In this document: piece after piece, positions 24 through 36,901 of the stretch | Position numbering within the stretch: position 1 is the stretch's first letter | Layout: every line of letters starts with the position of its first letter | Origin: Candidatus Anderseniibacteriota bacterium | GTDB lineage: Bacteria > Patescibacteriota > Andersenbacteria > UBA10190 | DNA: 40,361 nt | Direction of reading: 5' to 3' | Assembly (NCBI GenBank): GCA_040881505.1 | Contig: JBBEDC010000012.1 | Span: forward strand, 1 to 40,361 | Program-made: the position numbers and the translations under genes | The notes under the pieces: generated by a model | Told to the model about the DNA's origin: nothing | Databases searched by the model: none | The model's input: the letters and a program-made list of their open reading frames with translations, nothing else

Positions 24-395
24 ATGGTGTGGTTCACCGCTGTTGTCTTGGTTATCGCCCTCTTGATTTGCTTCCGGTTGAAGCAAACCTTGGATCGGAG
101 GCGCCACGCAGCCATCAAGGCCTCCTTGTCGTCGCTGGCTGCCGACATGGCCTACGCCTTCGGCACCTTTCGCCACGGAGATCGGGAGATCCAACTTCAA
201 GAGTTGGCTGACCGTCTCGGGCAGCTTTCAAGTGATGAGGCCGCCCATTTGCGGACCCTCGCGCTGGAAGCGATCCGGACTGGAAATCTTCCGCCACCCA
301 TTGTGCGGGAGACAAACAAACGTGAGTTTGCGTTCGTCTCACACTGTATCGGGACAGTGTGTGGGCAGACACAAGCGGCGCTTCAGCGTCCCTAG
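24..395 (+). CDS. hypothetical membrane-anchored protein (N-terminal TM helix, helical C-terminal part)
   Basis: 123-aa ORF. AAGGA at 12-16 lies 7 nt before the ATG. N-terminus VWFTAVVLVIALLICF is hydrophobic. Mostly G/C-ending codons. Followed by an intrinsic terminator at 420-450. No family recognised. Confidence 0.45.
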   Translation: MVWFTAVVLVIALLICFRLKQTLDRRRHAAIKASLSSLAADMAYAFGTFRHGDREIQLQELADRLGQLSSDEAAHLRTLALEAIRTGNLPPPIVRETNKREFAFVSHCIGTVCGQTQAALQRP

Positions 396-419
396 TAGCT
401 GTCCCGTCCGATCAACCAA

Positions 420-450
420 CCGCAGGGCCTTGCCCAGCGGTTTTCTTTTT
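420..450 (+). terminator. rho-independent terminator
   Basis: CCGCAGGGC-CTT-GCCCAGCGG hairpin (9 bp, one mismatch) followed by TTTTCTTTTT. Lies between convergent ORFs 24-395 and 458-796. Confidence 0.6.
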
Positions 451-457
451 GAATTGT

Positions 458-796
458 TTACCTTTCTAACGCCGTCATCCGACGACCAAGCTCGTACGTT
501 TTGTTCTCGACGTAGTCCAGCCGTTCGGGCATATCTTCTTGATGGCGAACTCGTCTGTCGAGTGCCGTCATTGCGGAGGTATTTGCATCAACCTTCTGGG
601 AAATTTCTTTATTAAACTGCCTTTGTTTCTTCCAGTTTTCCTTTTGCTCTGATCTAAATTCTTTCAGCTCTGTTGTAAACTCCTCCTTAAGTGTCTTAAT
701 CTCTTGCAGTAAATAACTCCCAACTTCTTTAATTGTGTCGGTAATTTCCACGAGTTGGCGCTGGGTAGCTGGCTTATCAAGATCCTTTTTTGGCAT
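458..796 (-). CDS. hypothetical coiled-coil protein
   Basis: 112-aa ORF rich in K/E/Q heptad-like sequence (KTLKEEFTTELKEFRSEQKENWKKQ). AT-rich. Downstream of and co-oriented with the CDPS gene. No family recognised. Confidence 0.45.
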   Translation of the reverse strand: MPKKDLDKPATQRQLVEITDTIKEVGSYLLQEIKTLKEEFTTELKEFRSEQKENWKKQRQFNKEISQKVDANTSAMTALDRRVRHQEDMPERLDYVENKTYELGRRMTALER

Positions 797-923
797 GCGT
801 GTATCGTACCATCATGAGATCACGAGAGAAATAGTGTTTCGCAGCATGGACCGCGTTCAAACCTGGTTTAAAAAAGAATTCTGGCAATTTTCACCTACTA
901 AATTTTGCAAATCAAGTAGTTGG

Positions 924-1556
924 CTAGGCTTTCGTTACAATCTGGAAACCAAGTTTATTTCTTGGTTTTCCATCATAGGCACCGTTAATGTACTTCTCAT
1001 ACACCATCCAATGCGCGTGATACACATAGGTAACTTTGGCTGCACTGAAAAAAGTTGGAGCAAATTCAAGAAACGCTAATTCTGACAACAGGTAGTGATT
1101 AGCAATTTGAGTGGCGACTTGAATATCTAAATCCTCCTTCTTTAAACCTTTCAAAACAAATGCGGTTGTGTCATCAGTATCTTTACGAAAACTTCCATTT
1201 TCGTCGTACATTTTTCTTACAATTCCATAATGCCGCCGATACTCTAAGTTTTCTTCAATCTCATTCTTCCAATCGACTACATGAACATCTTTTTTATCGA
1301 GATTCAGTTTCTCAATCGCTCTTGCAACTTTATTTTTTAAGTTATTGCTTTTTAAAACTGCCTTTGCCCGTGCTTCCTTTTCTGAGTAGCCAACAGCTGT
1401 GTATGTCGAGATCGCGGGAATATCGGCAATAAAAACAGAAACAGTGCCGTATTGTTTCGCAACCTTTTGCAATAACCACTCAATAATCTCCTCGCTAAAA
1501 TAGCTGTTGCCTGGACTCATTCCAACCACTGGTACGTTTTGTACTACTTTTGACAT
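924..1556 (-). CDS. tRNA-dependent cyclodipeptide synthase (CDPS), NYH-type motifs
   Basis: 210-aa ORF. VGMSPGNSYFS matches the CDPS catalytic-Ser motif (AlbC GISAGNSYFS, YvmC GISPFNSRFS). HYLLSELAFL matches the Y-x3-E motif (YvmC YVIAELPFF). VYHAHW matches the YH motif (YvmC AYHRPW). Comparison is from memory of family sequences; no search was run. Confidence 0.8.
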   Translation of the reverse strand: MSKVVQNVPVVGMSPGNSYFSEEIIEWLLQKVAKQYGTVSVFIADIPAISTYTAVGYSEKEARAKAVLKSNNLKNKVARAIEKLNLDKKDVHVVDWKNEIEENLEYRRHYGIVRKMYDENGSFRKDTDDTTAFVLKGLKKEDLDIQVATQIANHYLLSELAFLEFAPTFFSAAKVTYVYHAHWMVYEKYINGAYDGKPRNKLGFQIVTKA

Positions 1557-1626
1557 AGAGAATAAACCATATTCTATTTTCTAGAATATCTCAAAAACAT
1601 CTTATCTTTTAATCGCCTTAAGCCAG

Positions 1627-1697
1627 TTCCCGGGGAAGGATTCGAACCTTCGTTAGGGGATCCAAAGTCCCCCGTCCTGCCGCTAGACGACCCGGGA
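1627..1697 (-). tRNA. tRNA-Gln (anticodon UUG)
   Basis: The reverse complement folds as a 71-nt cloverleaf. Acceptor TCCCGGG/CCCGGGA, D stem GTCT/GGAC, anticodon stem GGGGA/TCCCC with loop CTTTGGA (TTG), T arm GAAGG-TTCGAAT-CCTTC, discriminator A. CCA is not encoded. Confidence 0.9.
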
Positions 1698-1815
1698 ATA
1701 TGGGTCACAATACCGATATTTTACCGTTGTAGCAAGCTTGTGGAAAAACAAGCATAGAACAGTCGTACAGTATCTGTTCTGGTGGTAAAATATATAAGTA
1801 TTAAACTTCCTTTGT

Positions 1816-2541
1816 ATGCCCGCTAAGCTCGAAGAGCGCAAACGCGCTATAGTATTACGTAAACAAGGATTTTCCTATAAGGAAATCCAACACAGCGTTC
1901 CTGTTTCAAAAGCTTCTTTGTCGCTTTGGCTTAGAGAAGTTTCCCTTACACAAAAGCAAAAACAGCGACTAGCTCGCTTATCTCTCGTGGGTCAAGAAGC
2001 TGGCGCAAGAGCTCAACGCGTCAAAAGATTGGAAGGAATAAGTCAATTGGCAGAAGAAATTAGAAAAGAGTTACCTAGGCTACTTCAGGATCCCTTTTTC
2101 GTAACAGGTCTTTCGCTATATTGGGCAGAGGGAACTAAGCAAAAACCGTGGAATGTATCTCAGCAGGTCACATTCGCAAACTCTGACGAAAGGACCATTG
2201 TTCTTATGCAAAAGTGGTTGTGTCGATACCTTAGGCTAGATGAGAAGCAACTAGTGTATCGTCTCCATATTCATGAAACGGCTAATATTGAAAGCGCGAA
2301 ACGAAAATGGAGCAAAATACTTAACGTTAGACCTGCCATTCTTCAGGTTACTGTTAAAAGAAATAATTCCTTGTTTCGAAAAAACACACATCGCAACAGC
2401 CTCAGCGGATACAAGGGACTAATTGTGATCAAGGTAAGAAAGAGCGCATGGTTTAACAGACGAATTGACCTATGGACTGATGGCATGTCTGAACACTTTC
2501 TGAAAGCAACCTCTTACACCTTAACCCCAAATACTTCTTGA
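1816..2541 (+). CDS. HTH-domain protein with LAGLIDADG-like homing-endonuclease-like core (tentative)
   Basis: 241-aa ORF. The N-terminus RKRAIVLRKQGFSYKEIQHSVPVSKASLSLWLREV looks like a helix-turn-helix. GLSLYWAEGTK plus VTFANSDERTIVLMQKWL resemble LAGLIDADG-type motifs. The 3-prime end overlaps the dnaX stop by 28 bp (convergent). Confidence 0.45.
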   Translation: MPAKLEERKRAIVLRKQGFSYKEIQHSVPVSKASLSLWLREVSLTQKQKQRLARLSLVGQEAGARAQRVKRLEGISQLAEEIRKELPRLLQDPFFVTGLSLYWAEGTKQKPWNVSQQVTFANSDERTIVLMQKWLCRYLRLDEKQLVYRLHIHETANIESAKRKWSKILNVRPAILQVTVKRNNSLFRKNTHRNSLSGYKGLIVIKVRKSAWFNRRIDLWTDGMSEHFLKATSYTLTPNTS

Positions 2542-5638: not shown

Positions 5639-7231
5639 ATGAAGCGTGGTCAAGCTCTAGCTCTATTACTCCTGTTATTGCTTTTTGCTGGAGCTATTCG
5701 CAGTTATGAGCTTACTGCCCGCAGCTTGTGGTTTGACGAAGCGTTCTCCTGGCGCCTGATTCAGTTCTCTCTGCCGGAAATGATTGCCCGAGACGCAGCC
5801 GATGTTCACCCGCCCCTGTATTACATATTCCTCAAAGGATGGGGGGCAGTCTTCGGCACATCCTTACTATCGCTTCGATCATTTTCTGTCACATTGGGTC
5901 TAGCGGCTATTGCCATGGCCTACGGCTTTGCTGCATCAGCCTGGCGATCGAGAGCGGTTGGCATACTTGCCGCTACACTCATGGCGCTGGCCGGCTGGCA
6001 GATTCAGTACGCCTGGGAAGCTCGCATGTACACGCTGGGGATTTTCTTTACGCTCTTATCTTCCTGGCTGCTACTGCAGCTCGTACGGACCACGCTGCAG
6101 CGCCAGGCAGCTAGCTGGCTTTTGGCTGTCTTGTACGGCATCACTGCCGCAGCTTTAGCGTACGTCCATTACTTTGCGTTCTTTACGCTGGCCGCCCACG
6201 CTTTATTTGTATTAATGATATTAGTGCGTCGAACGCGTTGGCGTTTGGGCGAGATGCTCGGCTCCCAGTTATTATGGATAGCTGCCGCCTCAGGAATACT
6301 AGCGGTTGTGCTGTATGCTCCTTGGATTCCGGTATTCCTCGCTCAAAACCAGCAAGTGCAGGATAGCTACTGGGTGCCTCCCATTGGCGGCTGGTCTATC
6401 CCCGACACTTTTTACCGTATGCTTATCCCCACTTCCGGCATTCCACCACATACCGGCCCCGAGCTTGTCTTCTCCGCCCTCCCTATTCTCGCAGTGCTCG
6501 CTTTGTGGATTTGGCTACTGGTGGGCTGCAAGAAAAGATCAGAAAGCCCACTAGCTCTTAAAGGAAAGGCGCAGGCCAGTGTTGTTCATGAGGACACCTG
6601 TGAGGCGGCTTGGCTGGTTATGTTAAGTGCCAGTGTTCCGTTTTTTCTGGCCATTGGCATATCCTTTATCGGCCAATCGCTCTATCAGGATCGCTTTTTG
6701 GTCTTTACCCATGCTTTTATCCTCATAGGATTGGCGGCGTTTCTGGTTCGTATCCGCCCTATATGGCTGCGACGCACAGCCATTACCGTTGTCATCCTGC
6801 TCTTCGCTGTTCTCTCCGTTCGGTTCTGGAATGAGATAGAGGTGCGCAATAAACCCGGTGCCGCTGGCGCAACTGCTCATATATTTGAGCAGCGCACAGA
6901 TGACGAGCCGGTATTTGTCAGCTCTGCGTTCGTATATTTTGCCGTCGAGCACTATGCCCATGAGGACTTTGATGGAGCAACTGATCCAACTCTATTGGCC
7001 GAAGGAGCAGCGCTGCATTTTGCCGGGGGCCCTATTCTTACGGACGCCGATGTTATCAGTCCAGCTGTACTGGATACTCTGCCTCAAGATAGTTTCTGGC
7101 TGGTAGATACTACGGGCTTTGGCGGATCTGAGCTTGAAGTGGTCGGCTGGCGGTCAGTGGAGCGGACTGTATATCCCGAAGTATTTGCTCATCAAGCTGA
7201 CGTTATTGTTCATCGCTACGTTCGGCAGTAG
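5639..7231 (+). CDS. GT-C fold membrane glycosyltransferase (family 39 / ArnT-PMT-like)
   Basis: About 530 aa and polytopic. SLWFDEAFSW near the first loop is typical of GT39/PMT_2 proteins. The ORF track starts at a TTG at 5621; the ATG at 5639 (MKRGQALALLLL) is more likely. Confidence 0.8.
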   Translation: MKRGQALALLLLLLLFAGAIRSYELTARSLWFDEAFSWRLIQFSLPEMIARDAADVHPPLYYIFLKGWGAVFGTSLLSLRSFSVTLGLAAIAMAYGFAASAWRSRAVGILAATLMALAGWQIQYAWEARMYTLGIFFTLLSSWLLLQLVRTTLQRQAASWLLAVLYGITAAALAYVHYFAFFTLAAHALFVLMILVRRTRWRLGEMLGSQLLWIAAASGILAVVLYAPWIPVFLAQNQQVQDSYWVPPIGGWSIPDTFYRMLIPTSGIPPHTGPELVFSALPILAVLALWIWLLVGCKKRSESPLALKGKAQASVVHEDTCEAAWLVMLSASVPFFLAIGISFIGQSLYQDRFLVFTHAFILIGLAAFLVRIRPIWLRRTAITVVILLFAVLSVRFWNEIEVRNKPGAAGATAHIFEQRTDDEPVFVSSAFVYFAVEHYAHEDFDGATDPTLLAEGAALHFAGGPILTDADVISPAVLDTLPQDSFWLVDTTGFGGSELEVVGWRSVERTVYPEVFAHQADVIVHRYVRQ

Positions 7232-18045: not shown

Positions 18046-18089
18046 CACCATAGTTTTGAACATTGTCAATGAAACGAAAGGAGAGACCC

Positions 18090-18653
18090 ATGGATTCGCA
18101 GCGGTCTGTGATGGTTCTGTGGGACTTGGAAAACTGGCTCTACTTTCCACGCAAAAAGAGGTGGCCGCTGTCGTAAGAAGCTCAGCGCGGATTTGCCTGT
18201 CGCATCCATCAGGACATAGAGCGATATTTTTCCTTGCAAGGGATGATAATCCCCGTTGGATGAAAGCTCGCGTTCCCACGCGATGACCTTGTAGACAAGG
18301 ACGCTATCAAGACCATGGCAAGTGAGAAGGGGTACACCTTTTACACTACGGATGAGCATGAGAAAGACGCGGCTGATAAGCTCATGATCAATAAGGGGTG
18401 TGAAATTTTGGAAGACCGGCCTCGGTTGATCACGGATGTCGTGCTCATGACCGGCGACACCGACTTCATCGACTTCGCTGGAGGTTTGCGCTCCGACGGG
18501 CATGATGTGTGGATTATCATGCCCGGAAAAGAAGAGTACCCCGTTCACGAAGCTGCACGGAAGTACAGGACCGTAACGAATTACGTGCTCTCGTTGGAGG
18601 ATGTCCGCGCGTTCGTTCGCAATAAAAGGTCTGAGGCTCTTAGCTCGGCGTAG
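18090..18653 (+). pseudogene. NYN-domain (LabA/DUF88-like) RNase-family gene interrupted by two in-frame stop codons
   Basis: A single frame from ATG 18090 (AAGGAG 6 nt upstream) reads MDSQRSVMVLWDLENW...S*(TAA 18174-18176)EAQRG...PVG*(TGA 18261-18263)KLAF...VVLMTGDTDFIDFAGGLRSDGHDVWII. The D-x-x-N start and the GDTDF/GxxV motifs are typical of NYN domains. No frameshifts. Confidence 0.65.
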
Positions 18654-18667
18654 CTCTGAGCTTTTTT
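18642..18667 (+). terminator. weak candidate terminator after the NYN gene
   Basis: AGCTC...GAGCT 5-bp stem with an 11-nt loop, followed by TTTTTTATTT. Confidence 0.3.
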
Positions 18668-18853
18668 ATTTCAACTCACCGACTCGTCCTAGATCTTCTT
18701 ACCAAGGTTGTGCTGTTCCACCCTTTTTGTTTTTTAGCGACACGTTTTCGAATAGCATCAATTTGGACACGAATCTGCTTTGTGCTTAATGCGGATGCGC
18801 CTGTTTGATTGTTTATCTGTAGCATGTAAAGCTAGCTGACTTAGGCTAACCCC

Positions 18854-22493: not shown

Positions 22494-22521
22494 TAAAGAA
22501 AAACACCCCAGTCGAGGTGTG
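22494..22521 (-). terminator. candidate rho-independent terminator of the 165-aa gene
   Basis: Minus strand: ACACCTC-GACT-GGGGTGT (one mismatch) followed by TTTTTCTTT, about 20 nt after the stop. Confidence 0.4.
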
Positions 22522-22542
22522 GTGGTTGAGTGAGCGGGAGGG

Positions 22543-23040
22543 CTACTTGGGACCCAATTCCTTAGGCCACAGGTATCGCAGGCTCTCGCGCATCTCGTTG
22601 ATGTCATCGCTGTCGACGTTGCCGTTTTCCTCGTGAAATGTGATCAGCTGCATGAAGAAAACCAAGCGGTATGCGGCATACAGGTGCCGCACAGCCTTTG
22701 GAACGTGCGCCAACTCGATCTTGAGCGCTTCAAGGCAGCGACCTCTCTTGCCTGCAAGTTCAGTCATCTCAACGATTTCGTGCAAAGCGCAGTAAGGACG
22801 AAAGGTCGGAGGAGTGTCTTCCGACACTAGGACGTAACCAGCAATGTAGGCAACGAAACCCTCGAACCGCTTGGCCTCATCGCTGAAGTCTCGTTTCGCT
22901 ACGGCGTACGTGTGAGTCACTCCTTTGTACTCCACGGTTTCCGCTGCCACTGCGATGTTCCTTAGCCATGCTGGCCAGTCATCGGGAATGGGTACTCCGT
23001 TGTAGAAAGTGCCAGGCGGGACTTGCTGGATGGAAGGCAT
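22543..23040 (-). CDS. hypothetical protein (orphan, GC-rich cassette)
   Basis: 165-aa ORF. GAGGAGG lies 5 nt upstream of the ATG, with a near-consensus promoter upstream. Contains CALHEIVEM. No family recognised. Confidence 0.6.
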   Translation of the reverse strand: MPSIQQVPPGTFYNGVPIPDDWPAWLRNIAVAAETVEYKGVTHTYAVAKRDFSDEAKRFEGFVAYIAGYVLVSEDTPPTFRPYCALHEIVEMTELAGKRGRCLEALKIELAHVPKAVRHLYAAYRLVFFMQLITFHEENGNVDSDDINEMRESLRYLWPKELGPK

Positions 23041-23085
23041 TTGTTCCTCCTCTTGTACGAGTCTTGTGGTTAAACCAGCAGACAG

Positions 23086-23114
23086 ACCATACCTATTAGT
23101 TGTCCTGGTGTCAA
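23086..23114 (-). promoter_or_regulatory. near-consensus sigma70-type promoter
   Basis: Minus strand: TTGACA (23114-23109), 17 nt, TATGGT (23091-23086). Lies about 45 nt upstream of the ATG at 23040. Confidence 0.5.
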
Positions 23115-23128
23115 TTGTCTCCGTTCCC

Positions 23129-23305: not shown

Positions 23306-23406
23306 AGTGACAATATGTTACGGATCTTTATGTCTCTAGTCTGCTATCCTCACATAGACAGTACAATGCTTGCCTACCTCCTCTTTGTCAGCTTCCCTGA
23401 CAGCCC

Positions 23407-23688: not shown

Positions 23689-23730
23689 ACGGTGTTTACA
23701 CTGCGAAAAAATCAGAAAGTTTGCAAGTCC

Positions 23731-24075
23731 TTATTCCGCTTCTTTAAAAGGCTGATGGAGAAGGTACGAGAGGAGGGAGAGAACGATGCTGAAAAGCACG
23801 GCCCACCAAAAGCCAGCGACAAAGAATCCCGGTACTACTGTACTGGCCAACATGATCATCAGCGCGTTTATAACCAAGAGGAATAGGCCGAAGGTTACGA
23901 TCGTAATCGGCAGGGTTAGAACAATAAGGATTGGTTTTATAATCACATTTACTATCCCTAATACTGCTGCGGCTATCAGCGCCGCCAGAAAACCATCTAC
24001 CGACACCCCTGGCAAAATATAGCTGGCGATTAATACCGCAAGCGTTGTAATTAACCAACGCAATAAAATATTCAT
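23731..24075 (-). CDS. phage-holin-4_2 / DUF360 family membrane protein
   Basis: 114 aa with 4 TM. LRWLITTLAVLIASYILPGV...NVIIKPILIVLTLPITIVTFGLFLLVINALM is typical of DUF360. Confidence 0.75.
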   Translation of the reverse strand: MNILLRWLITTLAVLIASYILPGVSVDGFLAALIAAAVLGIVNVIIKPILIVLTLPITIVTFGLFLLVINALMIMLASTVVPGFFVAGFWWAVLFSIVLSLLSYLLHQPFKEAE

Positions 24076-24132
24076 GATTACTACTGTACGGATGTGAGTG
24101 GAGTTGTCGAGCGGAGAAATACACAGCCCTTG

Positions 24133-25050: not shown

Positions 25051-25086
25051 AGAGCTGGTTTAATATACGACAGATTTGGTTGAGAT

Positions 25087-25117
25087 GAAAAAAGAAACGC
25101 TCCCGACGAGGAAGCGT
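25087..25117 (-). terminator. rho-independent terminator of the methyltransferase cassette
   Basis: Minus strand: ACGCTTCC-TCGTC-GGGAGCGT (one G-U pair) followed by TTCTTTTTTC, starting 7 nt after the stop. Confidence 0.6.
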
Positions 25118-25123
25118 GTGGGG

Positions 25124-25693
25124 TTAAGCCTTGCGGAGCATGAGCTCCAAAACGTCATGTGTGTGTTCGAATGGCTCGCGGTCGGTCCGTTGGAATTGGT
25201 GGCGATGAACGATCTCAAACGCTCGCACGAGCCTGTGGATGGTTTCTTCTTTTTGCTCGTAGTCGACGTGCCCAGTGCGATTGTCGACGATTTGCAAATT
25301 GAAGTGGATCAGGAACAGTCCTCTCGGACGCAGGACTCGAAAGGCTTCCGACAAGGCCCGCTGCGGATCCACGTAGTGAATGACGTTGACCATATAGAGG
25401 GCGTTGATGAGGTTGTCTCCGAACGGAAGAGCCTCGACGTCAGCAGTCTCGAACCGGGCATCGGGGTAGTTGAGTTTCGCGATCCCAACTTCCTCCTCGG
25501 ATTTGTCGACCCCGATTACATTCAGGCCGAGGTTGAAGAGAAAGGCGGTGTCACGACCAGAGCCACACCCGAGATCCAGGATGGGCCCGTTGCAGTTGCC
25601 CAGGGCTTCTGCGAACCGCCTCACGTAGGTCGTCGGATGACGATCCCAGTGACGACCCTCTCTGTATTTCAAATAAAGTGAGCTGTTGTGCAT
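25124..25693 (-). CDS. class I SAM-dependent methyltransferase
   Basis: Motif I ILDLGCGSGRD plus downstream VIGVD and ALYMVNVIHYV. ATG at 25693 with AAGGA 8 nt upstream; the track ORF extends to 25741. GC-rich, mostly G/C-ending codons. Confidence 0.85.
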   Translation of the reverse strand: MHNSSLYLKYREGRHWDRHPTTYVRRFAEALGNCNGPILDLGCGSGRDTAFLFNLGLNVIGVDKSEEEVGIAKLNYPDARFETADVEALPFGDNLINALYMVNVIHYVDPQRALSEAFRVLRPRGLFLIHFNLQIVDNRTGHVDYEQKEETIHRLVRAFEIVHRHQFQRTDREPFEHTHDVLELMLRKA

Positions 25694-25790
25694 TGCACAG
25701 ATCCTTGTTCTGATGCCATGGAATGAACATATCCGCCACAAAATACTATTCGTTTGTGTCTAACTGTGTCAACAGTACCGCGGTGTGTAA

Positions 25791-26222
25791 CTATACATTC
25801 AATCTAAGTGGCTCTATATCCCCGTTTAGTATTTCTGGTCGAATAACTGCAACTTCATGTGCCCACCTATATTCTTTTGGGTCTGGGCAGGGGTACATAA
25901 GGTAAATCTTCTTCTTGAGATAATACGCCAAGCCTAACTCCATCAACGAAGATGTTCCGACATAGCCTTCAATACCGTTCTTTGGCAGGTTGAGAAAAAT
26001 AACGGCGTCACTACCGGCAAGGAGGTCAAAGCATTTTCGCAAGATATTATTCTCGATAACATGCTCTCGATTCTCCTCAAGTTGGTCAATTAGATCCGGG
26101 TTTTCAATATGCAGGTCAGTATCGCACGGCACTTCAACGGCATGCCCAAAGTTTTGAAGGTGCTTTTGGAGTTCCAACATCTCTTTGGCAAAACTCATAC
26201 TGCCGCAAATCATTATCTTCAT
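25791..26222 (-). CDS. nucleoside 2-deoxyribosyltransferase-like protein
   Basis: 143 aa. MKIMICGSMSF N-terminus and GTSSLMELGLAYYLKKKIY (the GT..E.G.A motif of the family). AT-rich. Confidence 0.55.
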   Translation of the reverse strand: MKIMICGSMSFAKEMLELQKHLQNFGHAVEVPCDTDLHIENPDLIDQLEENREHVIENNILRKCFDLLAGSDAVIFLNLPKNGIEGYVGTSSLMELGLAYYLKKKIYLMYPCPDPKEYRWAHEVAVIRPEILNGDIEPLRLNV

Positions 26223-26241
26223 ATTAGTACTGCTCTTAGAA

Positions 26242-26682
26242 TCATAGTTCTAGTTTTTGTTTTTTAAATCCGTATAACCTTTCGCAAATCAATTCAATTT
26301 TGGACGGTCTGACAACATACCAAGAATCTCCGTTCAGAACGTCCTCGTCTCTTTCTGGGTTTGGTTTTTTTCTCTTCTTGTAGTGCTTCGTTACTAAATC
26401 GTATCTGTCGCCATCTATTTTTTCAGCTACACCCTCGAATTGTATCCCAAGATTATCTTCTCCTTGGCCGCTTATTGTTATAGTTCCAGCTACTTGATTG
26501 TTTTGTAGCAGTGCTTGCGAGTGACGTGCGTCCGGATCAGACATCCAATAGATGCTGAGATTGTCATCATGAATATATATAACATCTGCAACCCATGGTC
26601 CAGAACCGTCTACCGTAGCCAGGCTCATCAGATAGCCGTTACCTAAAACATCGTGGACTATTTGCTTAACATTCTCTAACAC
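26242..26682 (-). CDS. pyridoxamine 5-prime-phosphate oxidase-like (FMN-binding split-barrel) family protein
   Basis: 146 aa. LATVDGSGPWVADVIYIHDDNLSIYWMSDPDARHSQAL is typical of the PNPOx-like/general-stress-26 fold. GTG start 3 nt after the secA stop. Confidence 0.7.
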   Translation of the reverse strand: MLENVKQIVHDVLGNGYLMSLATVDGSGPWVADVIYIHDDNLSIYWMSDPDARHSQALLQNNQVAGTITISGQGEDNLGIQFEGVAEKIDGDRYDLVTKHYKKRKKPNPERDEDVLNGDSWYVVRPSKIELICERLYGFKKQKLEL

Positions 26683-26685
26683 ACC

Positions 26686-29367: not shown

Positions 29368-29438
29368 TTAGCAAGGACAGTTAAAACCTGCTACCGTTGA
29401 GTTTGGAGGTTCGTTCATTCAATACAAGGAGCTATCCG

Positions 29439-30260
29439 ATGCTTCATTTTCAGAGCTCAGGATCCGATTTGGTGCCAGCTCGGTACGAGATTCAATGTGA
29501 GGATGAGGGCACAACCTTAATTCTCAATATCCGAGCTGAGCTGTGGCCGCACGTGCTGTCCCGTCTGCGGAATTGGGCATACCTTCCGTACTTGGAGAGG
29601 GATCTGCAGGTTCCTCATTTCATTTCGCCGCACGGACTACCCTGGGGGTTTGGACCGGTGCTGATGGAGGAAAAATCAGCCGACTCTCAGTGGCACCGCA
29701 TTCGATGCGAGCTGCCCCAATTCTTTCGCGGCACCTTTGTGCATGAAGGAGATCCGTGGGGGAAGGCGTTTGGGCTCTCTGCTTCTCTGTGGGCGGTGCT
29801 TAGCCTGGCAAGCTATGAAGTGCCGGATGTGAATCTTTCGCCCGAACTGGTGCAGATCGTTGAGGTGATGATCGGTGCGCGCAGAAACAATATGGGCAGC
29901 AGCTGCGCCACGGCAGCCGCGTTTTCACCACAGCTGTGCACATGGATTGCAGCGCAGGATTTAGATAGGCTCTGTTGTCACTTGACGCAGCAGATGACAA
30001 ATGCCTACCTGCGTCTGTATGGGCTGGATGAGGTTGATTCTTTCGGCCGGCATGAGTTGGGTGCTCGGGTGATCGAATTTCCTTACATCCTGTTCTCATG
30101 CCCCGGAGATCGCTGCTCGCTGTATCGCAGCGTTGGTACAAACTGGCGGTACGGCCAGGGGTACGAGTTGATGGATCATAACGTCGACACGCCCATGCAA
30201 CAGCTCGTGTTGCTCATGGGAGTTGCCGCGCTGACAACGGCATATCGCAATTCTCAGTAA
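29439..30260 (+). CDS. hypothetical Cys/Trp-rich protein (orphan, GC-rich cassette)
   Basis: 273 aa from ATG 29439, with AAGGAG 7 nt upstream; the track starts at a TTG at 29397. 8 Cys and many Trp, no TM or signal peptide. Own terminator. No family recognised. Confidence 0.6.
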   Translation: MLHFQSSGSDLVPARYEIQCEDEGTTLILNIRAELWPHVLSRLRNWAYLPYLERDLQVPHFISPHGLPWGFGPVLMEEKSADSQWHRIRCELPQFFRGTFVHEGDPWGKAFGLSASLWAVLSLASYEVPDVNLSPELVQIVEVMIGARRNNMGSSCATAAAFSPQLCTWIAAQDLDRLCCHLTQQMTNAYLRLYGLDEVDSFGRHELGARVIEFPYILFSCPGDRCSLYRSVGTNWRYGQGYELMDHNVDTPMQQLVLLMGVAALTTAYRNSQ

Positions 30261-30265: not shown

Positions 30266-30291
30266 ACCCGCGCTACCTTGCGGGTTTTTTC
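30266..30291 (+). terminator. rho-independent terminator
   Basis: ACCCGC-GCTACCTT-GCGGGT followed by TTTTTCTT, starting 6 nt after the stop at 30260. Confidence 0.7.
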
Positions 30292-30296
30292 TTGTC

Positions 30297-31759: not shown

Positions 31760-31819
31760 CAGATCACGATAACGGGACGGGCGCATATTCGCAATAACGA
31801 GTATTTGAAGGGCCCTATA

Positions 31820-31847
31820 AATGAAAAAGGCCGCAACGTATGCGACC
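31820..31847 (-). terminator. rho-independent terminator upstream of the GT4 gene
   Basis: Minus strand: GGTCGCA-TACGT-TGCGGCC (one G-U pair) followed by TTTTTCATTT. Confidence 0.6.
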
Positions 31848-31859: not shown

Positions 31860-32027
31860 TCACAAACCAGCGTCAGGGGGCGCTTGAGATCTGCACAGCA
31901 GGCACAGCGTCTCGAGCGGAGAGCAGGCGTGAAACTTAGACCCACAGCTGCAGGTTACCTGGGTGTAGCGGGGGCCGTCTTGGTCTGAGAGAACTGCAGG
32001 CTCTGTCTTAACTTCTTCCGTGAGCAC
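31860..32027 (-). CDS. possible 55-codon Cys-rich small protein (GTG start)
   Basis: GGAAGGAAC lies 6 nt upstream of the GTG at 32027. Product ...YTQVTCSCGSKFHACSPLETLCLLCRS has pattern CxC-x6-C-x6-CxxC. The stop is 13 nt before the terminator at 31847. The region is also rich in hairpins, so a noncoding RNA is an alternative. Confidence 0.35.
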   Translation of the reverse strand: MLTEEVKTEPAVLSDQDGPRYTQVTCSCGSKFHACSPLETLCLLCRSQAPPDAGL

Positions 32028-32104
32028 GATCTTGTTCCTTCCGATCGTAAGACAGTGAATATCAGATGCCCGATGCAATCTGATAGTACTTAAGTCTACA
32101 GCAG

Positions 32105-33115
32105 TTACTTCGTCAGCAAAATACTTCGCTTGTAGTTATCAAGATTTTCTAAAGCAGCGCCCGCTCCTTTGACGACGCACACCAGCGGATCATCGGCGAT
32201 ATAGCAGGGAACTTGTGTTGCTTGAGAGATTAGTTGGTCAACATTGCGCAGCAGCGCTCCGCCACCACTGACTACAATTCCCTTGTCTATAACATCGGCG
32301 GCAAGTTCTGGAGGCGTCTCCTGTAATACATGCTTGATAGCTTGTAACATCTCCAGCAGCGGATCCCGCAGCGCCTCCGTCACCTCGCTTGAGCTTATAA
32401 TAGCCTCCTTAGGCAGACCAGACGCCAAGTCCCGTCCTCGAATCTTGAGCTCTTTAGGTTCTTCTTCGTGAATAGCGGAACCGATATTCTTCTTTACATA
32501 CTCAGCCGTCGGCTCCCCGATCATCAACCCATATCTTCGTCGAATATGTTCTGTGATTGCTCGATCAAAGGCGTTGCCTCCAACACGAGCTGAGTGCGCG
32601 GTTACGATGCCGCCGAGAGAAATAACGGCAACCTCGGTCGTACCTCCACCGATATCAACGATCATGTGTCCAGAGCTCTCCCCAATTGGAATATTCGCAC
32701 CAATTGCTGCAGCCACAGGCTCCTTAATTAAATATGCCGCCTTAGCCCCGGCGGAGACGGTCGCATCTACCACCGCTCGGCGTTCGGTGCTGGTAATACC
32801 GGCCGGAACCGATACCAGCACTTCCGGACGCAAAAACTTTACGGACGCCCCGGTTTGCTTAAGCAGGTATCGCAGCATTGCCTCGGCAACGCGGTAATCA
32901 GCAATGACGCCATCCTTTAAAGGTCGATGCGCCACAATCGTATCGGGTGTGCGGCCAATCATATCTTCAGCTTCCTTTCCAACAGCCAATACTGCATTAT
33001 CATCTACCGAAACTGCTACCACCGATGGTTCGTTCAAAACGATGCCCTTCTTGGGGACATACATCAGCGTGCTGGTGGTGCCTAAATCAATTGCGATCTT
33101 CCGTGTCCATGCCAT
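32105..33115 (-). CDS. MreB-family actin homolog (second paralog)
   Basis: 336 aa. IAIDLGTTSTLMYV, VDIGGGTTEVAV, VSGGGALLRNVD. Clearly homologous to, but distinct from, the MreB at 14586-15644. Confidence 0.9.
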   Translation of the reverse strand: MAWTRKIAIDLGTTSTLMYVPKKGIVLNEPSVVAVSVDDNAVLAVGKEAEDMIGRTPDTIVAHRPLKDGVIADYRVAEAMLRYLLKQTGASVKFLRPEVLVSVPAGITSTERRAVVDATVSAGAKAAYLIKEPVAAAIGANIPIGESSGHMIVDIGGGTTEVAVISLGGIVTAHSARVGGNAFDRAITEHIRRRYGLMIGEPTAEYVKKNIGSAIHEEEPKELKIRGRDLASGLPKEAIISSSEVTEALRDPLLEMLQAIKHVLQETPPELAADVIDKGIVVSGGGALLRNVDQLISQATQVPCYIADDPLVCVVKGAGAALENLDNYKRSILLTK

Positions 33116-33126: not shown

Positions 33127-34392
33127 TTACTCCTCCCGGGAAATATCAGCGCCGATAGCTTGTAGGCGTTCAGTTAAGTTAGCATATCCGCGGTCGATAA
33201 TCTCCGCGTTATCAATCACGGTTTGTCCTTGAGCCACCAGCCCGGCCATTAATAGTGTTGCCCCTGCCCTAATATCCAAACTTGGAATCCGTCTGCCCTT
33301 GAGCGGAGTGGGTCCGGATATAATAACGCGGTGCGGGTCGCACATGACCGCATCAGCCCCCATTTTGCTTAACTCGGTAATATGCTTAAATCGCCCCTCG
33401 TACATCGGATCATGAATCAAGGAGCTACCTTGTACCTGAGTGGCGATTACCGAGAATGTCGCTTGCAGGTCTGTCGCGATACCCGGATATGGCAGTGTTT
33501 GTATCTTAAAGGATCGCATCTGACTGGGAGTGACATGCACATTAGCAACCCCCTCAGTTTCATTTTGAACATCATACGCAATTCCAATATCATCGAGCTT
33601 CTTGAAAAAAAGCAGCAGATCATTTACCGGAACGCCTTTGACGGTAACCGTTGAGTGCGTTGCTGCTGCCAAGAGAATGAAGAGTCCCGCTTCCAGCATG
33701 TCTTGAATATTCTGTACGGTAGCTCCGTGCAAAGACTTTGATCCGGTAATAGTGATTGTATGAGTACCAGCGCCGGTCACTTCAGCTCCCATGGCGTTCA
33801 ACATCTCAGCTAGCGCTACGATATGCGGCTCTGCCGCCGCTATCTCGATCGTGGACGTGCCGGGCAGTGTGGCGCAGACGAGCATCATGTTCTCCGTAGC
33901 TGTTACAGAAAACTCTCGCAGGACAACACGGCCGGCAGCTAGGTTCGCGCCGTCGATTGTAACTATGTCATCTTCTTCATTGATAGCCGCGCCGAGCTGC
34001 GCAAAGCCGTCCAGGTGGACATCAATCGGGCGGGCGCCAATGATATCTCCTCCAGGAAGAGGCAGCTTAACCGAACGGGTGCGACCGAGCAGGGCTCCAA
34101 GTAAAAGAATTGAGCCGCGCAGTGCCCCTACGTCAGCAATGGAGATTGCTTCTGGCGATACTTGCTTTGCGTGCACGCTCAGCCTTTGATCGTCATATTC
34201 AACCTCAACCCCTATTGAACTCAAAATATCCGACATTTTGTATATATCGGCAATGGCTGGAATGTTGGAGATTGTCACTCGCTCTGCGGTAAGCAGTGAG
34301 GCGGCAATGAGCGGTAGGGCTGCATTTTTGGAGCCAAACACCGGAATCTCTCCCGAGAGCTGTTTTCCTCCTTCAATAACAAAATGAGACAT
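33127..34392 (-). CDS. murA: UDP-N-acetylglucosamine 1-carboxyvinyltransferase
   Basis: 421 aa. GSKNAALPL, LPGGDIIGARPIDVHL, and the C-terminal RGY..L..L..LGA pattern. The active-site position is Asp116 (GAT at 34047-34045) rather than Cys. Confidence 0.95.
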   Translation of the reverse strand: MSHFVIEGGKQLSGEIPVFGSKNAALPLIAASLLTAERVTISNIPAIADIYKMSDILSSIGVEVEYDDQRLSVHAKQVSPEAISIADVGALRGSILLLGALLGRTRSVKLPLPGGDIIGARPIDVHLDGFAQLGAAINEEDDIVTIDGANLAAGRVVLREFSVTATENMMLVCATLPGTSTIEIAAAEPHIVALAEMLNAMGAEVTGAGTHTITITGSKSLHGATVQNIQDMLEAGLFILLAAATHSTVTVKGVPVNDLLLFFKKLDDIGIAYDVQNETEGVANVHVTPSQMRSFKIQTLPYPGIATDLQATFSVIATQVQGSSLIHDPMYEGRFKHITELSKMGADAVMCDPHRVIISGPTPLKGRRIPSLDIRAGATLLMAGLVAQGQTVIDNAEIIDRGYANLTERLQAIGADISREE

Positions 34393-34466: not shown

Positions 34467-34499
34467 AAAAAAAGACCCATGACACCGCGCGTCATGGGG
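34467..34499 (-). terminator. rho-independent terminator of the 160-aa membrane-protein cassette
   Basis: Minus strand: ACCCCATGAC-GCGCGGT-GTCATGGGT followed by CTTTTTTT, starting 8 nt after the stop. Confidence 0.7.
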
Positions 34500-34506
34500 T
34501 TGCGGT

Positions 34507-34989
34507 TCACTGCTGTCCGCTTTGCCGGTGCAGCTCTGCCAGGTGGAGTGCCTCTTCGACTCTCTGGGGCTGCATTTTCTGGAGTTCGCGGATGAAATCC
34601 GGATTCTCATCCACGAAGCGGGACACTGTCGGCGCGCGGAGAGTGTCGTGCTTCTTGGCGACTATTATCTTTCTCCAGTCGCTGTGCCAGACGCGTATAG
34701 CTAACAGTATCGGAATTCCAAAAGCAAGATACACGACTGAAGCGCCCCAAGGATCAGGTGCGCTAAACAGCAAAGCCACATAGGCAAGGAAGAGCAGCCC
34801 ACAAGCCATCACCATTGTGCGAGTGCTGAGCGACGGGCACCTGTGTGACAGGAGTGTTTCGAGCTCCTCCGCCTTCTTCGCGCCCTCTTGCGTCAGCTCG
34901 AATTGGTCCTCTCGATCCTCCTTGATCTCCTGAAGGCCGTTCGGACCCTCTACTTTGTGGATCCAAACGTGCCGCTCGTAGTACCGCAT
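34507..34989 (-). CDS. hypothetical two-TM membrane protein (orphan, GC-rich cassette)
   Basis: ATG at 34989 with GGAGGTG 5 nt upstream. Two central hydrophobic helices (MVMACGLLFLAYVALLF, VVYLAFGIPILLAI) flanked by charged regions. No family recognised. Confidence 0.6.
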   Translation of the reverse strand: MRYYERHVWIHKVEGPNGLQEIKEDREDQFELTQEGAKKAEELETLLSHRCPSLSTRTMVMACGLLFLAYVALLFSAPDPWGASVVYLAFGIPILLAIRVWHSDWRKIIVAKKHDTLRAPTVSRFVDENPDFIRELQKMQPQRVEEALHLAELHRQSGQQ

Positions 34990-35155
34990 TAGTTCACCTC
35001 CTACCTGTTTGAGTGTACACACTGCTAAATAGCTCGCTTGTCTGAGCAGTGGAATCAGACACCATATTAAAGCACAATATCAATGAATAAGCAAGATTGC
35101 TTGCGCAACACTCTTCATTGTGTAAGGCTCCCCCTATTAGGTAACATACAAAGAC

Positions 35156-36505
35156 ATGAATCGTCTTACCCGCCGCATACTTCTCATAGTCTCCGTATTG
35201 GTGTTTCTCGCCATAGCTCCGGCTGTGGTGCTCTACGCTATCGGATATCGTCCGCCAACATCAGGACGGATTGTACCGGATCCCGTTGGTGTTTTGCTGG
35301 TGGATGCGATTCCTGCAAGAGCAGAGGTAGTAGTAGATGGCAAACAGGTTGGTCGTCTTCCCCGCTCAGTGTCGAACCTTGTTCCTGGAGAGGTTCTCGT
35401 AGAAATCACAAAACAGGGATACCAGCCATGGAACAAGCGGCTAGCGATTGAACCAGCTCGTGCTACTGAAGTGCGGGACGTGAGGCTTTTTCCTGAATCA
35501 CCTGCCGTAGAACAACTATTGCGGGATGTAGAAGATTTTAGCCTAGCACCGAATCGATCTCTGCTTGCCGCCGTTTCATCTGATCGGACCTTGCGCGTTA
35601 TCAGCCAGGCAGGAGAAACTCTCATTTCTCCAGTCGCCCTAGCTGGCACACCAACTGAAATTCTCTGGTCCCCCGACAGCACGTTGATCCTCATTCGTTA
35701 TGCAAATGGCGCCCACACCCTTGTTGACGTCACGAAAAAGGAAAGCATTGAAACCGTGCTTCCTCAACTAGCGTCAGCTACGCAGACTCAATGGGATCCG
35801 CGCGTACCTGGCCGCGTATTCTACGTCACTCCCGGACTCGCGCTATCTTCTACGAGTGTCCTATCAGGCACTACAACCACGCTTGTACCACGAGTAGCCT
35901 CATTCGGCGTCAGTTCCCGCCATCTGTATGTCATTAATCAGGCAGGAGAGTTTACTCGACATACGCTTCAAGGCCAGCTCGCGCATTCATTTGATCCGCT
36001 AACAGATCCAGTTCAGGGAATCGCAGTAACGCCCGCGGGAGCGGTGAGCGTGCATTTTGCGGATGGACGAGTTGGAATTTTAAATGACGACGATGAGTTA
36101 GTTGATATTGCACCGCATGCCGAGCGGGTAAGCTGGTCACCGGATGGGCGAATGCTAATGCTGCAGACGGCAGTCAGTGAGTTGCAGATGTATAACGTGG
36201 GGAATGAGAGGCGTTTTGATATTCCAATCAATCAGCTCCGTTTAGTGGTACGGCTGTCGCGCCCGATCAGTCATCCGCAATGGTTTGCCGGCGGCAACCA
36301 TCTAATCTATCAAGTGGAAGACGAAATTGTTATTACCGAAATCGATACCCGCGACTACCCTGCTACATATACACTTGATTCAACAAACACCGGAGAAGCT
36401 CATGTGTCGGTTGGTGAAGAAGGAGAAACAGTATTCTATGTTAAGCGAAACGGGGACTCGCAGAATCTTGTATTCGCGCATTTGCTAACGGCTGAAGATA
36501 GGTAA
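35156..36505 (+). CDS. PEGA-domain protein with TolB-like (PD40) beta-propeller repeats, N-terminal TM anchor
   Basis: 449 aa. TM helix ILLIVSVLVFLAIAPAVVLYAIGY. PEGA segment VDAIPARAEVVVDGKQVGRLP...GEVLVEITKQGYQPW. WSPD motifs (ILWSPDSTL, VSWSPDGRM). Confidence 0.7.
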   Translation: MNRLTRRILLIVSVLVFLAIAPAVVLYAIGYRPPTSGRIVPDPVGVLLVDAIPARAEVVVDGKQVGRLPRSVSNLVPGEVLVEITKQGYQPWNKRLAIEPARATEVRDVRLFPESPAVEQLLRDVEDFSLAPNRSLLAAVSSDRTLRVISQAGETLISPVALAGTPTEILWSPDSTLILIRYANGAHTLVDVTKKESIETVLPQLASATQTQWDPRVPGRVFYVTPGLALSSTSVLSGTTTTLVPRVASFGVSSRHLYVINQAGEFTRHTLQGQLAHSFDPLTDPVQGIAVTPAGAVSVHFADGRVGILNDDDELVDIAPHAERVSWSPDGRMLMLQTAVSELQMYNVGNERRFDIPINQLRLVVRLSRPISHPQWFAGGNHLIYQVEDEIVITEIDTRDYPATYTLDSTNTGEAHVSVGEEGETVFYVKRNGDSQNLVFAHLLTAEDR

Positions 36506-36520
36506 CGCGAAGATAAGGCT

Positions 36521-36550
36521 AAAAAAATACCGCAGGCGAGGTGCCGGCGG
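36521..36550 (-). terminator. rho-independent terminator of csrA
   Basis: Minus strand: CCGCCGGC-ACCTC-GCCTGCGG (one mismatch) followed by TATTTTTTT, 28 nt after the csrA stop. Confidence 0.6.
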
Positions 36551-36577
36551 TGTGAGCGAAAAGGGGGCGGGCGAATG

Positions 36578-36805
36578 CTAGGCGCTCTTCTCGAGCGCGT
36601 CTTCGACTGCTTCGTCGGGCGAGGTGTGAGCATTGGCCGAGCGATCCCTTTGAATTGCGAGGTAGACTTCCTCGCGGTGGACGGAGACCTCCTTGGGAGC
36701 TTCGATGCCGAGGCGGACCTTGTCGCCGCGGATTTCGATCACCATCAGGGTGATGGAGTCCCCAATGATGATCTTCTCATCCTTCTTTCGGCTGAGAACC
36801 AGCAT
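36578..36805 (-). CDS. csrA: carbon storage regulator / translational repressor CsrA
   Basis: 75 aa from ATG 36805. MLVLSRKKDEKIIIGDSITLMVIEIRGDKVRLGIEAPKEVSVHREEVY is a canonical CsrA sequence. AAGGAAGG lies 7 nt upstream. By hand count, 58 of 75 codons end in G/C. The track ORF is over-extended to 36901. Confidence 0.9.
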   Translation of the reverse strand: MLVLSRKKDEKIIIGDSITLMVIEIRGDKVRLGIEAPKEVSVHREEVYLAIQRDRSANAHTSPDEAVEDALEKSA

Positions 36806-36808
36806 GGT

Positions 36809-36828
36809 GTCACCTTCCTTTATGTGAC
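36809..36828 (-). promoter_or_regulatory. SD-sequestering hairpin presenting GGA in its loop (candidate CsrA autoregulatory site)
   Basis: Minus strand: GTCAC-ATAAAGGAAG-GTGAC, ending 3 nt before the csrA ATG. The loop contains the SD and an A(N)GGA-type motif. Confidence 0.35.
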
Positions 36829-36901
36829 AATGGGGCGGGGCGTGTGGCACGACCATCGTGCCGGTGGGAATGTGCAAGCGCTCAGTATACCCAGTATACA
36901 C

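Follow-up and report, generated by a model that had tools for sequence, protein, structure and literature searches.

Putative moron-like single-gene units with Shine-Dalgarno-led starts in a largely Shine-Dalgarno-free housekeeping locus of an Andersenbacteria genome

Autonomous units composed of a promoter, a gene and a terminator, known as morons, are found in bacteriophages, between the conserved genes of lambdoid prophages. Integron cassettes lack promoters, line up at a single attI site and carry an attC at their end. Regarding translation, Bacteroidota and the leaderless-rich Actinobacteria and Deinococcus make little use of the Shine-Dalgarno (SD) motif, which leads only a minority of their genes, and in E. 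coli and Bacillus, CsrA autoregulates its own synthesis via a GGA overlapping the SD of its gene. Translation initiation in the Candidate Phyla Radiation (CPR, Patescibacteria) is essentially unstudied, and the literature found reports only that no anti-SD motif is detectable in many Parcubacteria 16S genes. Here, a window of 40,361 bp was analyzed, which is the whole contig of an Andersenbacteria metagenome-assembled genome (MAG) of the CPR/Parcubacteria group (locus tags WEC84_005xx-006xx). The analysis bears on eight genes, hereafter cassettes, that an earlier note on this DNA had set apart from the surrounding housekeeping backbone, namely orf123, an NYN-domain gene (NYN), orf165, a methyltransferase gene (MTase), orf273, orf55 (a putative gene), orf160 and csrA. 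These genes form a class of their own in SD use and codon choice, and seven of them are absent from the orthologous loci of the relatives. Most likely, these seven are autonomous moron-like units inserted into an SD-independent genome, while csrA shares their architecture and is conserved.

All per-gene statistics concern this one contig (GC 49.7%), on which the eight cassettes were compared with the 39 other genes, i.e., 47 genes in total. According to Pfam, the backbone consists mostly of minus-strand housekeeping genes: rpsK-rpsD-rpoA-rplQ-rplM-rpsI, murA, mreB2, a GT4 glycosyltransferase gene, hpf, secA, secD-secF-holB-frr, rseP-proS-mreB1-mreC-mreD-PBP2, greA, lysS-serS-ftsQ and dnaX. Start codons were set by inspecting the upstream sequence of every candidate, and the SD score was the best duplex energy (dG) of positions -20 to -1 with the anti-SD tail CACCUCCUUA, the canonical 16S 3' tail. 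The earlier note had described an SD-less core and eight genes with a canonical SD 5-8 nt before the start. Indeed, a purine-rich SD core at this spacing was found in 8/8 cassettes, with a dG of -5.7 to -14.5, and the median dG was -8.2 kcal/mol for the cassettes vs. -1.7 for the others (p=9e-5). When the classes were set by third-position GC content (GC3) alone, a dG <=-5.5 was reached by 8/8 cassettes vs. 5/39 others (Fisher p=4e-6). Backbone starts carry no SD enrichment over random window positions (mean dG -1.84 vs. -2.90; dG <=-6 in 12.8% vs. 14.5%), hence the five SD-like cases of the backbone occur at chance rate. These are secF (AAAGGAG at a 7-nt spacing, a motif absent from all three relatives L001, L081 and L082), dnaX (AAGGAG at a 2-nt spacing), ftsQ, PNPOx and mreB2. 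The last one qualifies the claim that both mreB genes are SD-less: mreB2 has a GGAGGAG, albeit placed 15 nt from the ATG.

The flagged genes had also been described as GC-richer at third positions, and the separation turned out to be complete, with a GC3 of 0.62-0.78 for the cassettes vs. <=0.571 for 39/39 others (no overlap, Mann-Whitney p=1e-5). The reservation that this contrast is modest for orf273 and NYN can be dropped, since both (0.620 and 0.72/0.66, respectively) exceed all 39 others. The codon-adaptation check that had been proposed gave the same picture: in a leave-one-out log-likelihood score of synonymous codon usage, the eight cassettes are the top 8/47 genes (p=6e-9). Amino-acid composition did not differ between cassettes and backbone (Arg/Lys ratio, GARP/FYNKI content), therefore the contrast lies in codon choice, with NNC and NNG favored, and not in protein composition. 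High expression as the cause of the codon bias was ruled out, because ribosomal-protein genes are without such bias. The cassettes also carry signals of their own. A terminator scan of 17.5-37.4 kb yielded 37 sites vs. 18.6 expected, and 6 of the 7 strongest are directly 3' of cassette stop codons. With those of orf123 and csrA, recognized by eye in addition to the six from the scan, a hairpin followed by a T-run is present 3' of all eight cassettes, and not only of most of them as had been stated. Perfect TTGACA -35 boxes precede orf165, where a near-consensus promoter had been pointed out and is confirmed as a motif, and MTase, which adds a second one. Only weak candidate promoters were seen for orf160 and csrA, and none was found for the other cassettes. 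The non-coding flanks of the cassettes have a backbone-like GC of 0.39-0.47 (0.56-0.60 for those of csrA), so that the cassette SDs are not a by-product of GC-rich surroundings. In seven other loci, genes without a Pfam match made up 15/18 of the SD-led genes vs. 23/68 of the rest (p=3e-4), in a sample biased by the fact that these loci were picked for orf273 homologs.

Relatives were gathered through a SecA-anchored scan of GTDB species genomes and a MreB-anchored scan of metagenomes. This led to three loci, L001 (SecA 70% identical, GC ~0.50), L081 (GC 0.39) and L082 (GC 0.54), and to a fourth one, L166 (SecA 69% identical), covering part of the region; the four span SecA identities of 65-70%. 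Backbone order is kept in all of them, and reads rpsK...rpsI-csrA-PEGA-murA-mreB2-GT4-hpf-secA-(variable)-secD-secF-holB-frr-rseP in L001, L081 and L082. Seven cassettes are absent from the orthologous loci, whose gaps are short where measurable, while csrA is present. In the four relatives, no homolog of orf160, orf55, NYN, orf165 or MTase was found, nor any of orf273 at its site. The gaps in L001, L081 and L082 are 68, 81 and 248 nt at the orf160 site, 2, 97 and 729 nt at the orf55 site, and 29, 121 and 127 nt at the orf273 site, respectively; at the NYN site, they are 54 and 244 nt in the first two, L082 stopping short. In a neighbor-joining tree of seven proteins, the window is sister to these three relatives, so that gain and loss are not separable by presence or absence alone. 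Outgroups (L119, L107 and others) have tight junctions at three of the sites: 14 nt for frr-rseP, between which NYN lies antisense in the window, ~100-150 nt for PEGA-murA, and 32 nt for mreB2-GT4 (in L119), a segment of 318 nt in the window, where it holds orf55. Hence NYN, orf160 and orf55 are best read as gains in the window lineage.

The backbone seems to do without the SD by means of translational coupling and of leaderless-type promoters. Eleven of 40 backbone genes, about a quarter, overlap the preceding gene on their strand or start <=15 nt from its stop, and translational coupling is probable for them; ten others are leaderless-like and 19 are neither, whereas 0/8 cassettes are leaderless-like. 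For the -10 analysis, 96 backbone upstream regions were pooled from the window, L001, L081, L082 and L166, a -10-like hexamer being defined by A2, T6 and >=4/6 matches. Such hexamers peak with their end 6 nt before the start (15 vs. ~1.5 expected per position), positions 7-9 being also raised, and those of the peak are accompanied by better -35 boxes than the hexamers at other positions (p=0.01). This is illustrated by murA, preceded by TTGACT-17-TATAAC-6-ATG in L081, TTGACA-17-TATTCT-6-ATG in L082 and TATAGT-7-ATG in L001, and by hpf, with the same -10-to-ATG arrangement in four relatives. In the pooled genomes, -10-like hexamers 6-7 nt before the ATG were also observed at proS, rpoA, mreB2, secD and PEGA. 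The leaderless geometry concerns about 30% of backbone starts (range a quarter to a third), and the position of the motif suggests that the corresponding mRNAs would have no leader or almost none. In more distant CPR loci, 1.6% of 183 housekeeping starts have an SD with dG <=-6, thus SD-free cores are widespread in this part of the CPR. The -10 position signal of these AT-rich loci was too noisy and is not counted as support. SD-independent initiation is plausible in Parcubacteria, since no anti-SD motif was detected in about half of their 16S genes (PMC9297842). Our literature search found no report of leaderless initiation in the CPR. The anti-SD appears to be still functional here, judging from the SD spacing of csrA in four genomes and of orf273 and its five closest homologs.

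Among the cassettes, csrA has a different history. In L001, L081 and L082, it lies between rpsI and a PEGA/WD40 gene, with 66-72% identity, and in 4/4 genomes it is directly 3' of the rpsI terminator (window 36578-36930; L001 4100-4450; L081 6850-7160; L082 6700-7000). Its SD is canonical in all of them (AAAGGAAGGTGA in the window, AAAGGAGGG in L001, AAAAGGAG in L081 and GGAGGGTG in L082) and each copy has a hairpin and a T-run, while csrA was not found at that position in outgroups. Because the same locus and SD are shared with three relatives, csrA is not a recent import and is, on this comparative basis, to be seen as ancestral to this bacterial family. The repeated single-gene acquisition put forward in the earlier note is therefore supported for the seven units absent from relatives, and has to be given up for csrA. 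Its GC3 is above that of the backbone in the window (0.78 vs. 0.49) as well as in L081 (0.47 vs. ~0.30). The csrA leader is GGA-rich, and a predicted hairpin loop holds the GGA/SD in the window and in L082; a GGA is likewise found in a predicted loop of the orf55 leader. As canonical repression by CsrA involves binding to a GGA in the SD, the csrA SD is probably conserved because CsrA represses its own translation in this way. By the same mode of action, CsrA would be able to act almost only on leadered SD-bearing mRNAs, which in the 40-kb window are those of csrA itself and of the acquired cassettes. CsrA could then be a translational gatekeeper, or xenogeneic silencer, of incoming SD-bearing genes, for which the SD would serve as a foreign-vs.-native tag, much as H-NS acts at the transcription level; we regard this extension by analogy as a long shot. 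No report on CsrA function in the CPR was found in the literature search.

Among the acquired units, only orf273 could be traced. An exhaustive HMMER search retrieved 467 representative clusters of full-length homologs, the best being 39-43% identical, for a family that has no Pfam model. Conserved motifs are W69-G70, CPGDxCxL and H247-N-x-D250-x-P-x-Q-Q, and the AlphaFold (AF2) model (pLDDT 95.2, pTM 0.93) is predicted to adopt a two-repeat beta-beta-alpha-alpha-beta3-alpha layout, for which Foldseek returned no match at E <=0.001 in PDB and BFVD. The top match, a LAGLIDADG homing endonuclease, was insignificant (E=0.012, TM 0.16-0.19) and was rejected as the fold. In each of nine genomic contexts inspected, the homolog is a lone gene, and the sites are unrelated. 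In L165, it sits between a LOG-family gene and alaS, with an AAGGAA SD amid SD-free neighbors and a GC3 above theirs. L166, from the same bacterial family as the window, has a copy at a different site, between PMT_2 and GT4, with GGAGG 7 nt before the ATG; this copy is 34% identical to orf273 vs. 41-42% for copies in the unrelated contexts L165 and L169, and orf273 thus disagrees with the backbone in position and in identity. The homologs of L167 and L169 have strong SDs and terminators, with a GC3 below or equal to that of their neighbors. In L170 (ENA ERZ27247977, a 256-kb contig), the homolog (6001-6804) is inserted on the opposite strand inside the archaeal cluster L19e...SecY-adk-cmk / Cbf5...S13-S4-S11-RpoD, with a GC3 of 0.60 vs. 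~0.8 for its neighbors, a TATA box and no SD, which suggests a cross-domain spread. Since lone copies occur in unrelated contexts including an archaeon, the family would be mobile across CPR-like genomes and domains, and it may be a self-mobilizing selfish gene. The GC3 offset of the homologs from their neighbors ranges from +0.13 to -0.15, i.e., in both directions. In the five closest sampled homologs (33-42% identity), the start is consistently preceded by an SD at a distance of 4-8 nt, amid SD-poor neighbors, and such correct spacing argues that SD-dependent initiation works in these organisms. The SD thus seems to be kept and used within a pool of mobile accessory genes, rather than being just a donor leftover.

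The homolog of L163 is part of an array of small hypothetical genes, about a dozen in number. This array (2000-15800 of L163; NCBI GCA_964507875.1, contig CAZDQX010000002.1) comprises ~12-14 such genes with strong SDs and spacers of ~250 nt, GC-richer than the interspersed and flanking SD-less genes (HAD, MscL, DSPc, cupredoxin), and a PemK toxin gene is found near it.

From these observations, we infer the following scenario. The housekeeping core would be SD-free, its translation being partly coupled and partly leaderless. After the split from the nearest sampled relatives, seven single-gene expression units would have entered the conserved gene order, following a common plan: a sigma-70-type promoter, a leader of ~40-90 nt, a canonical SD, an open reading frame (ORF) with G/C-ending codons and an intrinsic terminator. 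Because such units carry their own signals, they could be expressed wherever they land between operons. Their common codon bias would point to a GC-richer source pool, with orf273 stemming from a family whose members spread singly between CPR-like genomes and have reached an archaeon, and with NYN already decaying. The csrA gene would have the same leadered, SD-bearing and terminated architecture while being ancestral to the family.

Several points weigh against this scenario. Neither a donor nor any mobility gene, flanking repeat or target-site duplication came to light. For orf273, orf165 and MTase, presence or absence alone is explained with equal parsimony by gain in the window or by loss in the sister clade, and orf123, at the contig edge, is without a comparator locus. 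Neither coupling nor a leaderless-like arrangement applies to about half of the backbone starts, and the leaderless status itself is deduced from motif positions and not from mapped transcription starts. The SDs were scored on the canonical anti-SD tail, as neither the window nor the other loci retrieved contain an rRNA gene. The highest GC3 of all genes (0.776) belongs to csrA although it is vertically conserved, so that a high GC3 is not strictly the mark of a recent import. Homologs of orf273 at greater distance lack a leading SD (L170; L171, with no obvious signal; L172, where a TATAAT box lies 6 nt from the ATG in a leaderless arrangement). Finally, the ORFan status of four cassettes is relative to family, viral and plasmid libraries, the large protein databases lying outside these searches, and it is possible that orf55 is no true gene.

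The eight genes could instead be native, forming a leadered, SD-dependent and possibly CsrA-controlled class that was lost from the relatives and whose codon bias was selected. Indeed, csrA has exactly this architecture, is vertically conserved and has a raised GC3 in 3/4 genomes; the closest orf273 homologs keep their SD across genomes, and the GGA in the predicted hairpin loops of the csrA and orf55 leaders would fit with a control by CsrA. Yet a native class is unlikely in view of the absence of seven of the eight genes from syntenic relatives, with three sites being tight junctions in outgroups, of the apparent discordance of orf273 with the backbone in phylogeny and position, of the pseudogene state of NYN, and of the ribosomal-protein genes being without the codon bias.

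A direct uptake from an SD-using, higher-GC host of which this organism would be an epibiont, as suggested in the earlier note, is equally improbable. The direction of the GC3 shift fits, as all seven new cassettes are shifted to higher GC3 (probability ~0.008 if the direction were random), their SDs are complementary to the canonical anti-SD along as many as 10 nt, and the low-GC accessory genes of the window (PNPOx, CDPS and NDT-like) are SD-less, as if the type of donor set both GC and SD use. However, no donor was found: the searches made gave no close homolog (<=45% identity for MTase and <=43% for orf273), the homologs of orf273 lie in CPR-like and archaeal contexts, the cassettes searched had no match in 72,556 plasmids or in viral contigs, and the amino-acid composition is not shifted toward GC-rich donors. 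Chimeric assembly or mis-binning of GC-richer fragments is very improbable, for although the window is a MAG contig and only short Logan contigs are available for this run, the seven cassettes occupy at least five separate and precise intergenic sites with syntenic backbone on both sides and intact flanking genes, their non-coding flanks are backbone-like in GC, and the independent Logan assembly of SRR27977658 reproduces both PEGA-orf160-murA and hpf-orf273-secA-PNPOx, which makes chimerism less likely.

The insertion of moron-like units into an SD-independent genome is thus the reading retained for seven of the cassettes; the coordinates of all eight are collected in Table 1. As orf123 is at the contig edge, its promoter region falls outside the contig; no Pfam, PHROG or NCBIfam match was found for its product. 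NYN, which the earlier note had taken for a gene, does have the domain and the SD, while it is not intact: in a single frame without frameshifts, it contains an in-frame TAA (18174-18176) and an in-frame TGA (18261-18263). Its read-through translation matches Pfam NYN with 28.1 bits (gathering threshold 24.2) over residues 7-158, and the NCBI annotation covers the C-terminal 112 aa only. It is thus a pseudogene, in which only a 28-codon stub is now served by the SD. Reassignment of TGA (genetic code 25) was rejected, as one of the stops is a TAA and the other genes are intact under code 11. For orf165, no match was obtained in Pfam, PHROGs, NCBIfam, viral contigs or plasmids, and PDB sequence searches with orf165 and NYN gave no significant match. 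For MTase, ATG 25693 is favored as start because the predicted transcription start falls 3' of the alternative TTG 25741; homologs are remote only (<=45% identity over about half its length). As the orf55 terminator falls inside the longest GT4 ORF, the GT4 start is set at 31786. No homolog of orf55 was found in the searches made, large protein databases not being among them. Viral-contig scans with orf273, orf165, orf160, MTase and the orf273-family alignment revealed no relatives, tblastn of orf165, orf273 and orf160 against 72,556 plasmids gave no match, and PHROGs and NCBIfam over the cassettes returned a generic methyltransferase only, with no structural or phage-specific PHROG match. The Pfam annotation of the window contains no integrase or recombinase. 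The search for shared short repeats in the cassette flanks that had been proposed as a check found none, and it revealed neither flanking repeats, attC-like sites, target-site duplications nor shared inverted repeats.

Table 1. Positions of the cassettes, of their expression signals and of backbone examples in the 40,361-bp window (dG in kcal/mol; promoters and terminators are predicted).
Feature	Position	Strand	Remarks
orf123 SD	12..16	+	AAGGA, 7 nt before ATG
orf123	24..395	+	123 aa, N-terminal transmembrane helix; GC3 0.677, dG -6.0
orf123 terminator	420..450	+	hairpin CCGCaGGGCcttGCCCaGCGG then T-run; by eye, internal mismatch hid it from the scan
NYN SD	18077..18083	+	AAAGGAG, 6 nt before ATG
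NYN-domain pseudogene	18090..18653	+	strand opposite to backbone; GC3 0.66-0.72
NYN terminator	18642..18671	+	scan
orf165 terminator	22495..22520	-	scan
orf165	22543..23040	-	165 aa, ORFan; GC3 0.651, dG -12.0
orf165 SD	23046..23052	-	GAGGAGG, 5 nt before ATG
orf165 promoter	23086..23114	-	TTGACA-17-TATGGT; predicted leader ~40 nt
MTase terminator	25088..25117	-	scan
MTase	25124..25693	-	class I S-adenosylmethionine methyltransferase (Methyltransf_11), 189 aa; Pfam 2.3e-21; GC3 0.684
MTase SD	25702..25706	-	AAGGA, 8 nt before ATG
MTase promoter	25743..25772	-	TTGACA-16/18-(A)ATAGT/TAGTAT; predicted from sequence
orf273 SD	29426..29431	+	AAGGAG, 7 nt before ATG
orf273	29439..30260	+	opposite strand, between secA and hpf; GC3 0.620
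orf273 terminator	30266..30293	+	scan
orf55 terminator	31819..31847	-	scan; within longest GT4 ORF
orf55 (putative)	31860..32027	-	55 codons, Cys-rich, GTG start; GC3 0.625
orf55 SD	32036..32042	-	GGAAGGA, 8 nt before GTG; in predicted hairpin loop
murA	33127..34392	-	backbone example; orthologs with leaderless-type promoter in L082 and L081
orf160 terminator	34467..34498	-	scan; 10-bp stem
orf160	34507..34989	-	160 aa, predicted membrane protein, ORFan; GC3 0.671, dG -14.5
orf160 SD	34994..35003	-	TAGGAGGTGA, 10-nt complement of canonical 16S 3' tail
orf160 candidate promoter	35066..35094	-	TTGCTT-17-TTTAAT; by eye, weak
csrA terminator-like hairpin	36521..36551	-	with T7 run; by eye
csrA	36578..36805	-	75 aa; Pfam CsrA PF02599, E=8.9e-25, 86.9 bits (cut-off 27); GC3 0.776
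csrA SD	36810..36821	-	AAAGGAAGGTGA; GGA in loop of predicted 6-bp hairpin
csrA candidate promoter	36884..36911	-	TTGTAT-16-TATACT; by eye; overlaps rpsI terminator
rpsK-rpsD-rpoA-rplQ-rplM-rpsI	36932..40183	-	SD-free backbone example, dG +1.4 to -3.6

The secA-secD interval (window 22328-26685), where orf165 and MTase are located, is a variable hotspot in every genome compared. In the window, it comprises eight genes (PNPOx, NDT-like, MTase, AP_endo2, a holin-4 family protein gene, orf93, orf58 and orf165). In L001, it holds a single 570-aa gene of 37% GC on the opposite strand, in L081 AP_endo2 only, and in L166 three NUDIX genes, a pyrophosphatase gene, an NDT-like gene and AP_endo2. AP_endo2 is thus considered native to this interval, as it is present in L081 and L166. 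A Logan contig of SRR27977658 (L162, 4949 nt) stops within the final codons of the NDT-like gene and so directly borders on the promoter of the MTase cassette, which could reflect a strain-level presence or absence of this cassette. Another corner of the window (400-2541) is of low GC (0.38-0.42) and contains an unannotated 112-aa ORF (458-796, minus strand), a cyclodipeptide synthase gene (CDPS; 924-1556), a tRNA-Gln(TTG) gene (1626-1697), which is the sole match of an Rfam scan of the window (no rRNA), and a 241-aa helix-turn-helix-like ORF. Its genes are all SD-less, with -10-like boxes near the ATG, and this corner might represent another class of accessory DNA, one of low GC. The window also has two mreB paralogs, ~49% identical, mreB1 (14586-15626) with mreC-mreD-PBP2 and mreB2 (32105-33115) after murA, whose positions are kept in all relatives and outgroups.

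This locus gives the picture of an SD-independent and partly leaderless core, set against an SD-led minority made of recent accessory genes and csrA. If this pattern holds genome-wide, recently gained genes of these lineages would be cheaply recognizable by their SD, gene callers relying on a single ribosome-binding-site model would mis-start one of the two classes, and it would become a sharp question what CsrA targets in a genome almost free of SDs. Besides, the locus illustrates how moron-like insertion of single genes may occur in highly conserved operon neighborhoods of reduced genomes, and how a widespread protein family without a fold match, that of orf273, may travel as a lone gene across CPR bacteria and archaea.

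Among the known systems, integron cassettes are, like the units described here, small, single-gene and mobile. Unlike them, the present units are scattered and some carry candidate promoters, and neither a common attC-like repeat nor an integrase was found. Genomic islets acquired by horizontal gene transfer (HGT) are also codon-usage outliers absent from syntenic relatives, and one copy is decaying here. The difference lies in the cassettes being single genes that are dispersed across at least five sites of the 40 kb, with no integrase, tRNA target or flanking repeat found. Morons resemble the cassettes in being single genes with their own terminator and promoter (for the cassettes, a candidate before orf165, MTase, orf160 and csrA), of atypical composition, with accessory or unknown cargo, and placed between what are neighboring genes in relatives. 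In contrast to morons, the cassettes lie in the cellular housekeeping chromosome of a CPR bacterium and not in a prophage, with no nearby phage genes and no viral homologs in the scans made, and their translation signals are of another type than those of the genes around them. This last feature is reminiscent of SD-poor systems, in which housekeeping genes are SD-less with a -10 box 6-7 nt before the ATG and strong SDs are few, except that the SD-led minority of this locus consists almost wholly of lineage-specific accessory genes and csrA. The csrA of the window has a CsrA domain, a GGA-rich leader and an SD in a predicted loop, in line with CsrA autoregulation; unlike in E. coli and Bacillus, almost no other gene in view has an SD. 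Taken together, the best-supported view is that the pattern combines known phenomena, namely HGT islets or morons on the one hand and SD-poor, leaderless translation on the other, in a lineage that has been barely examined.

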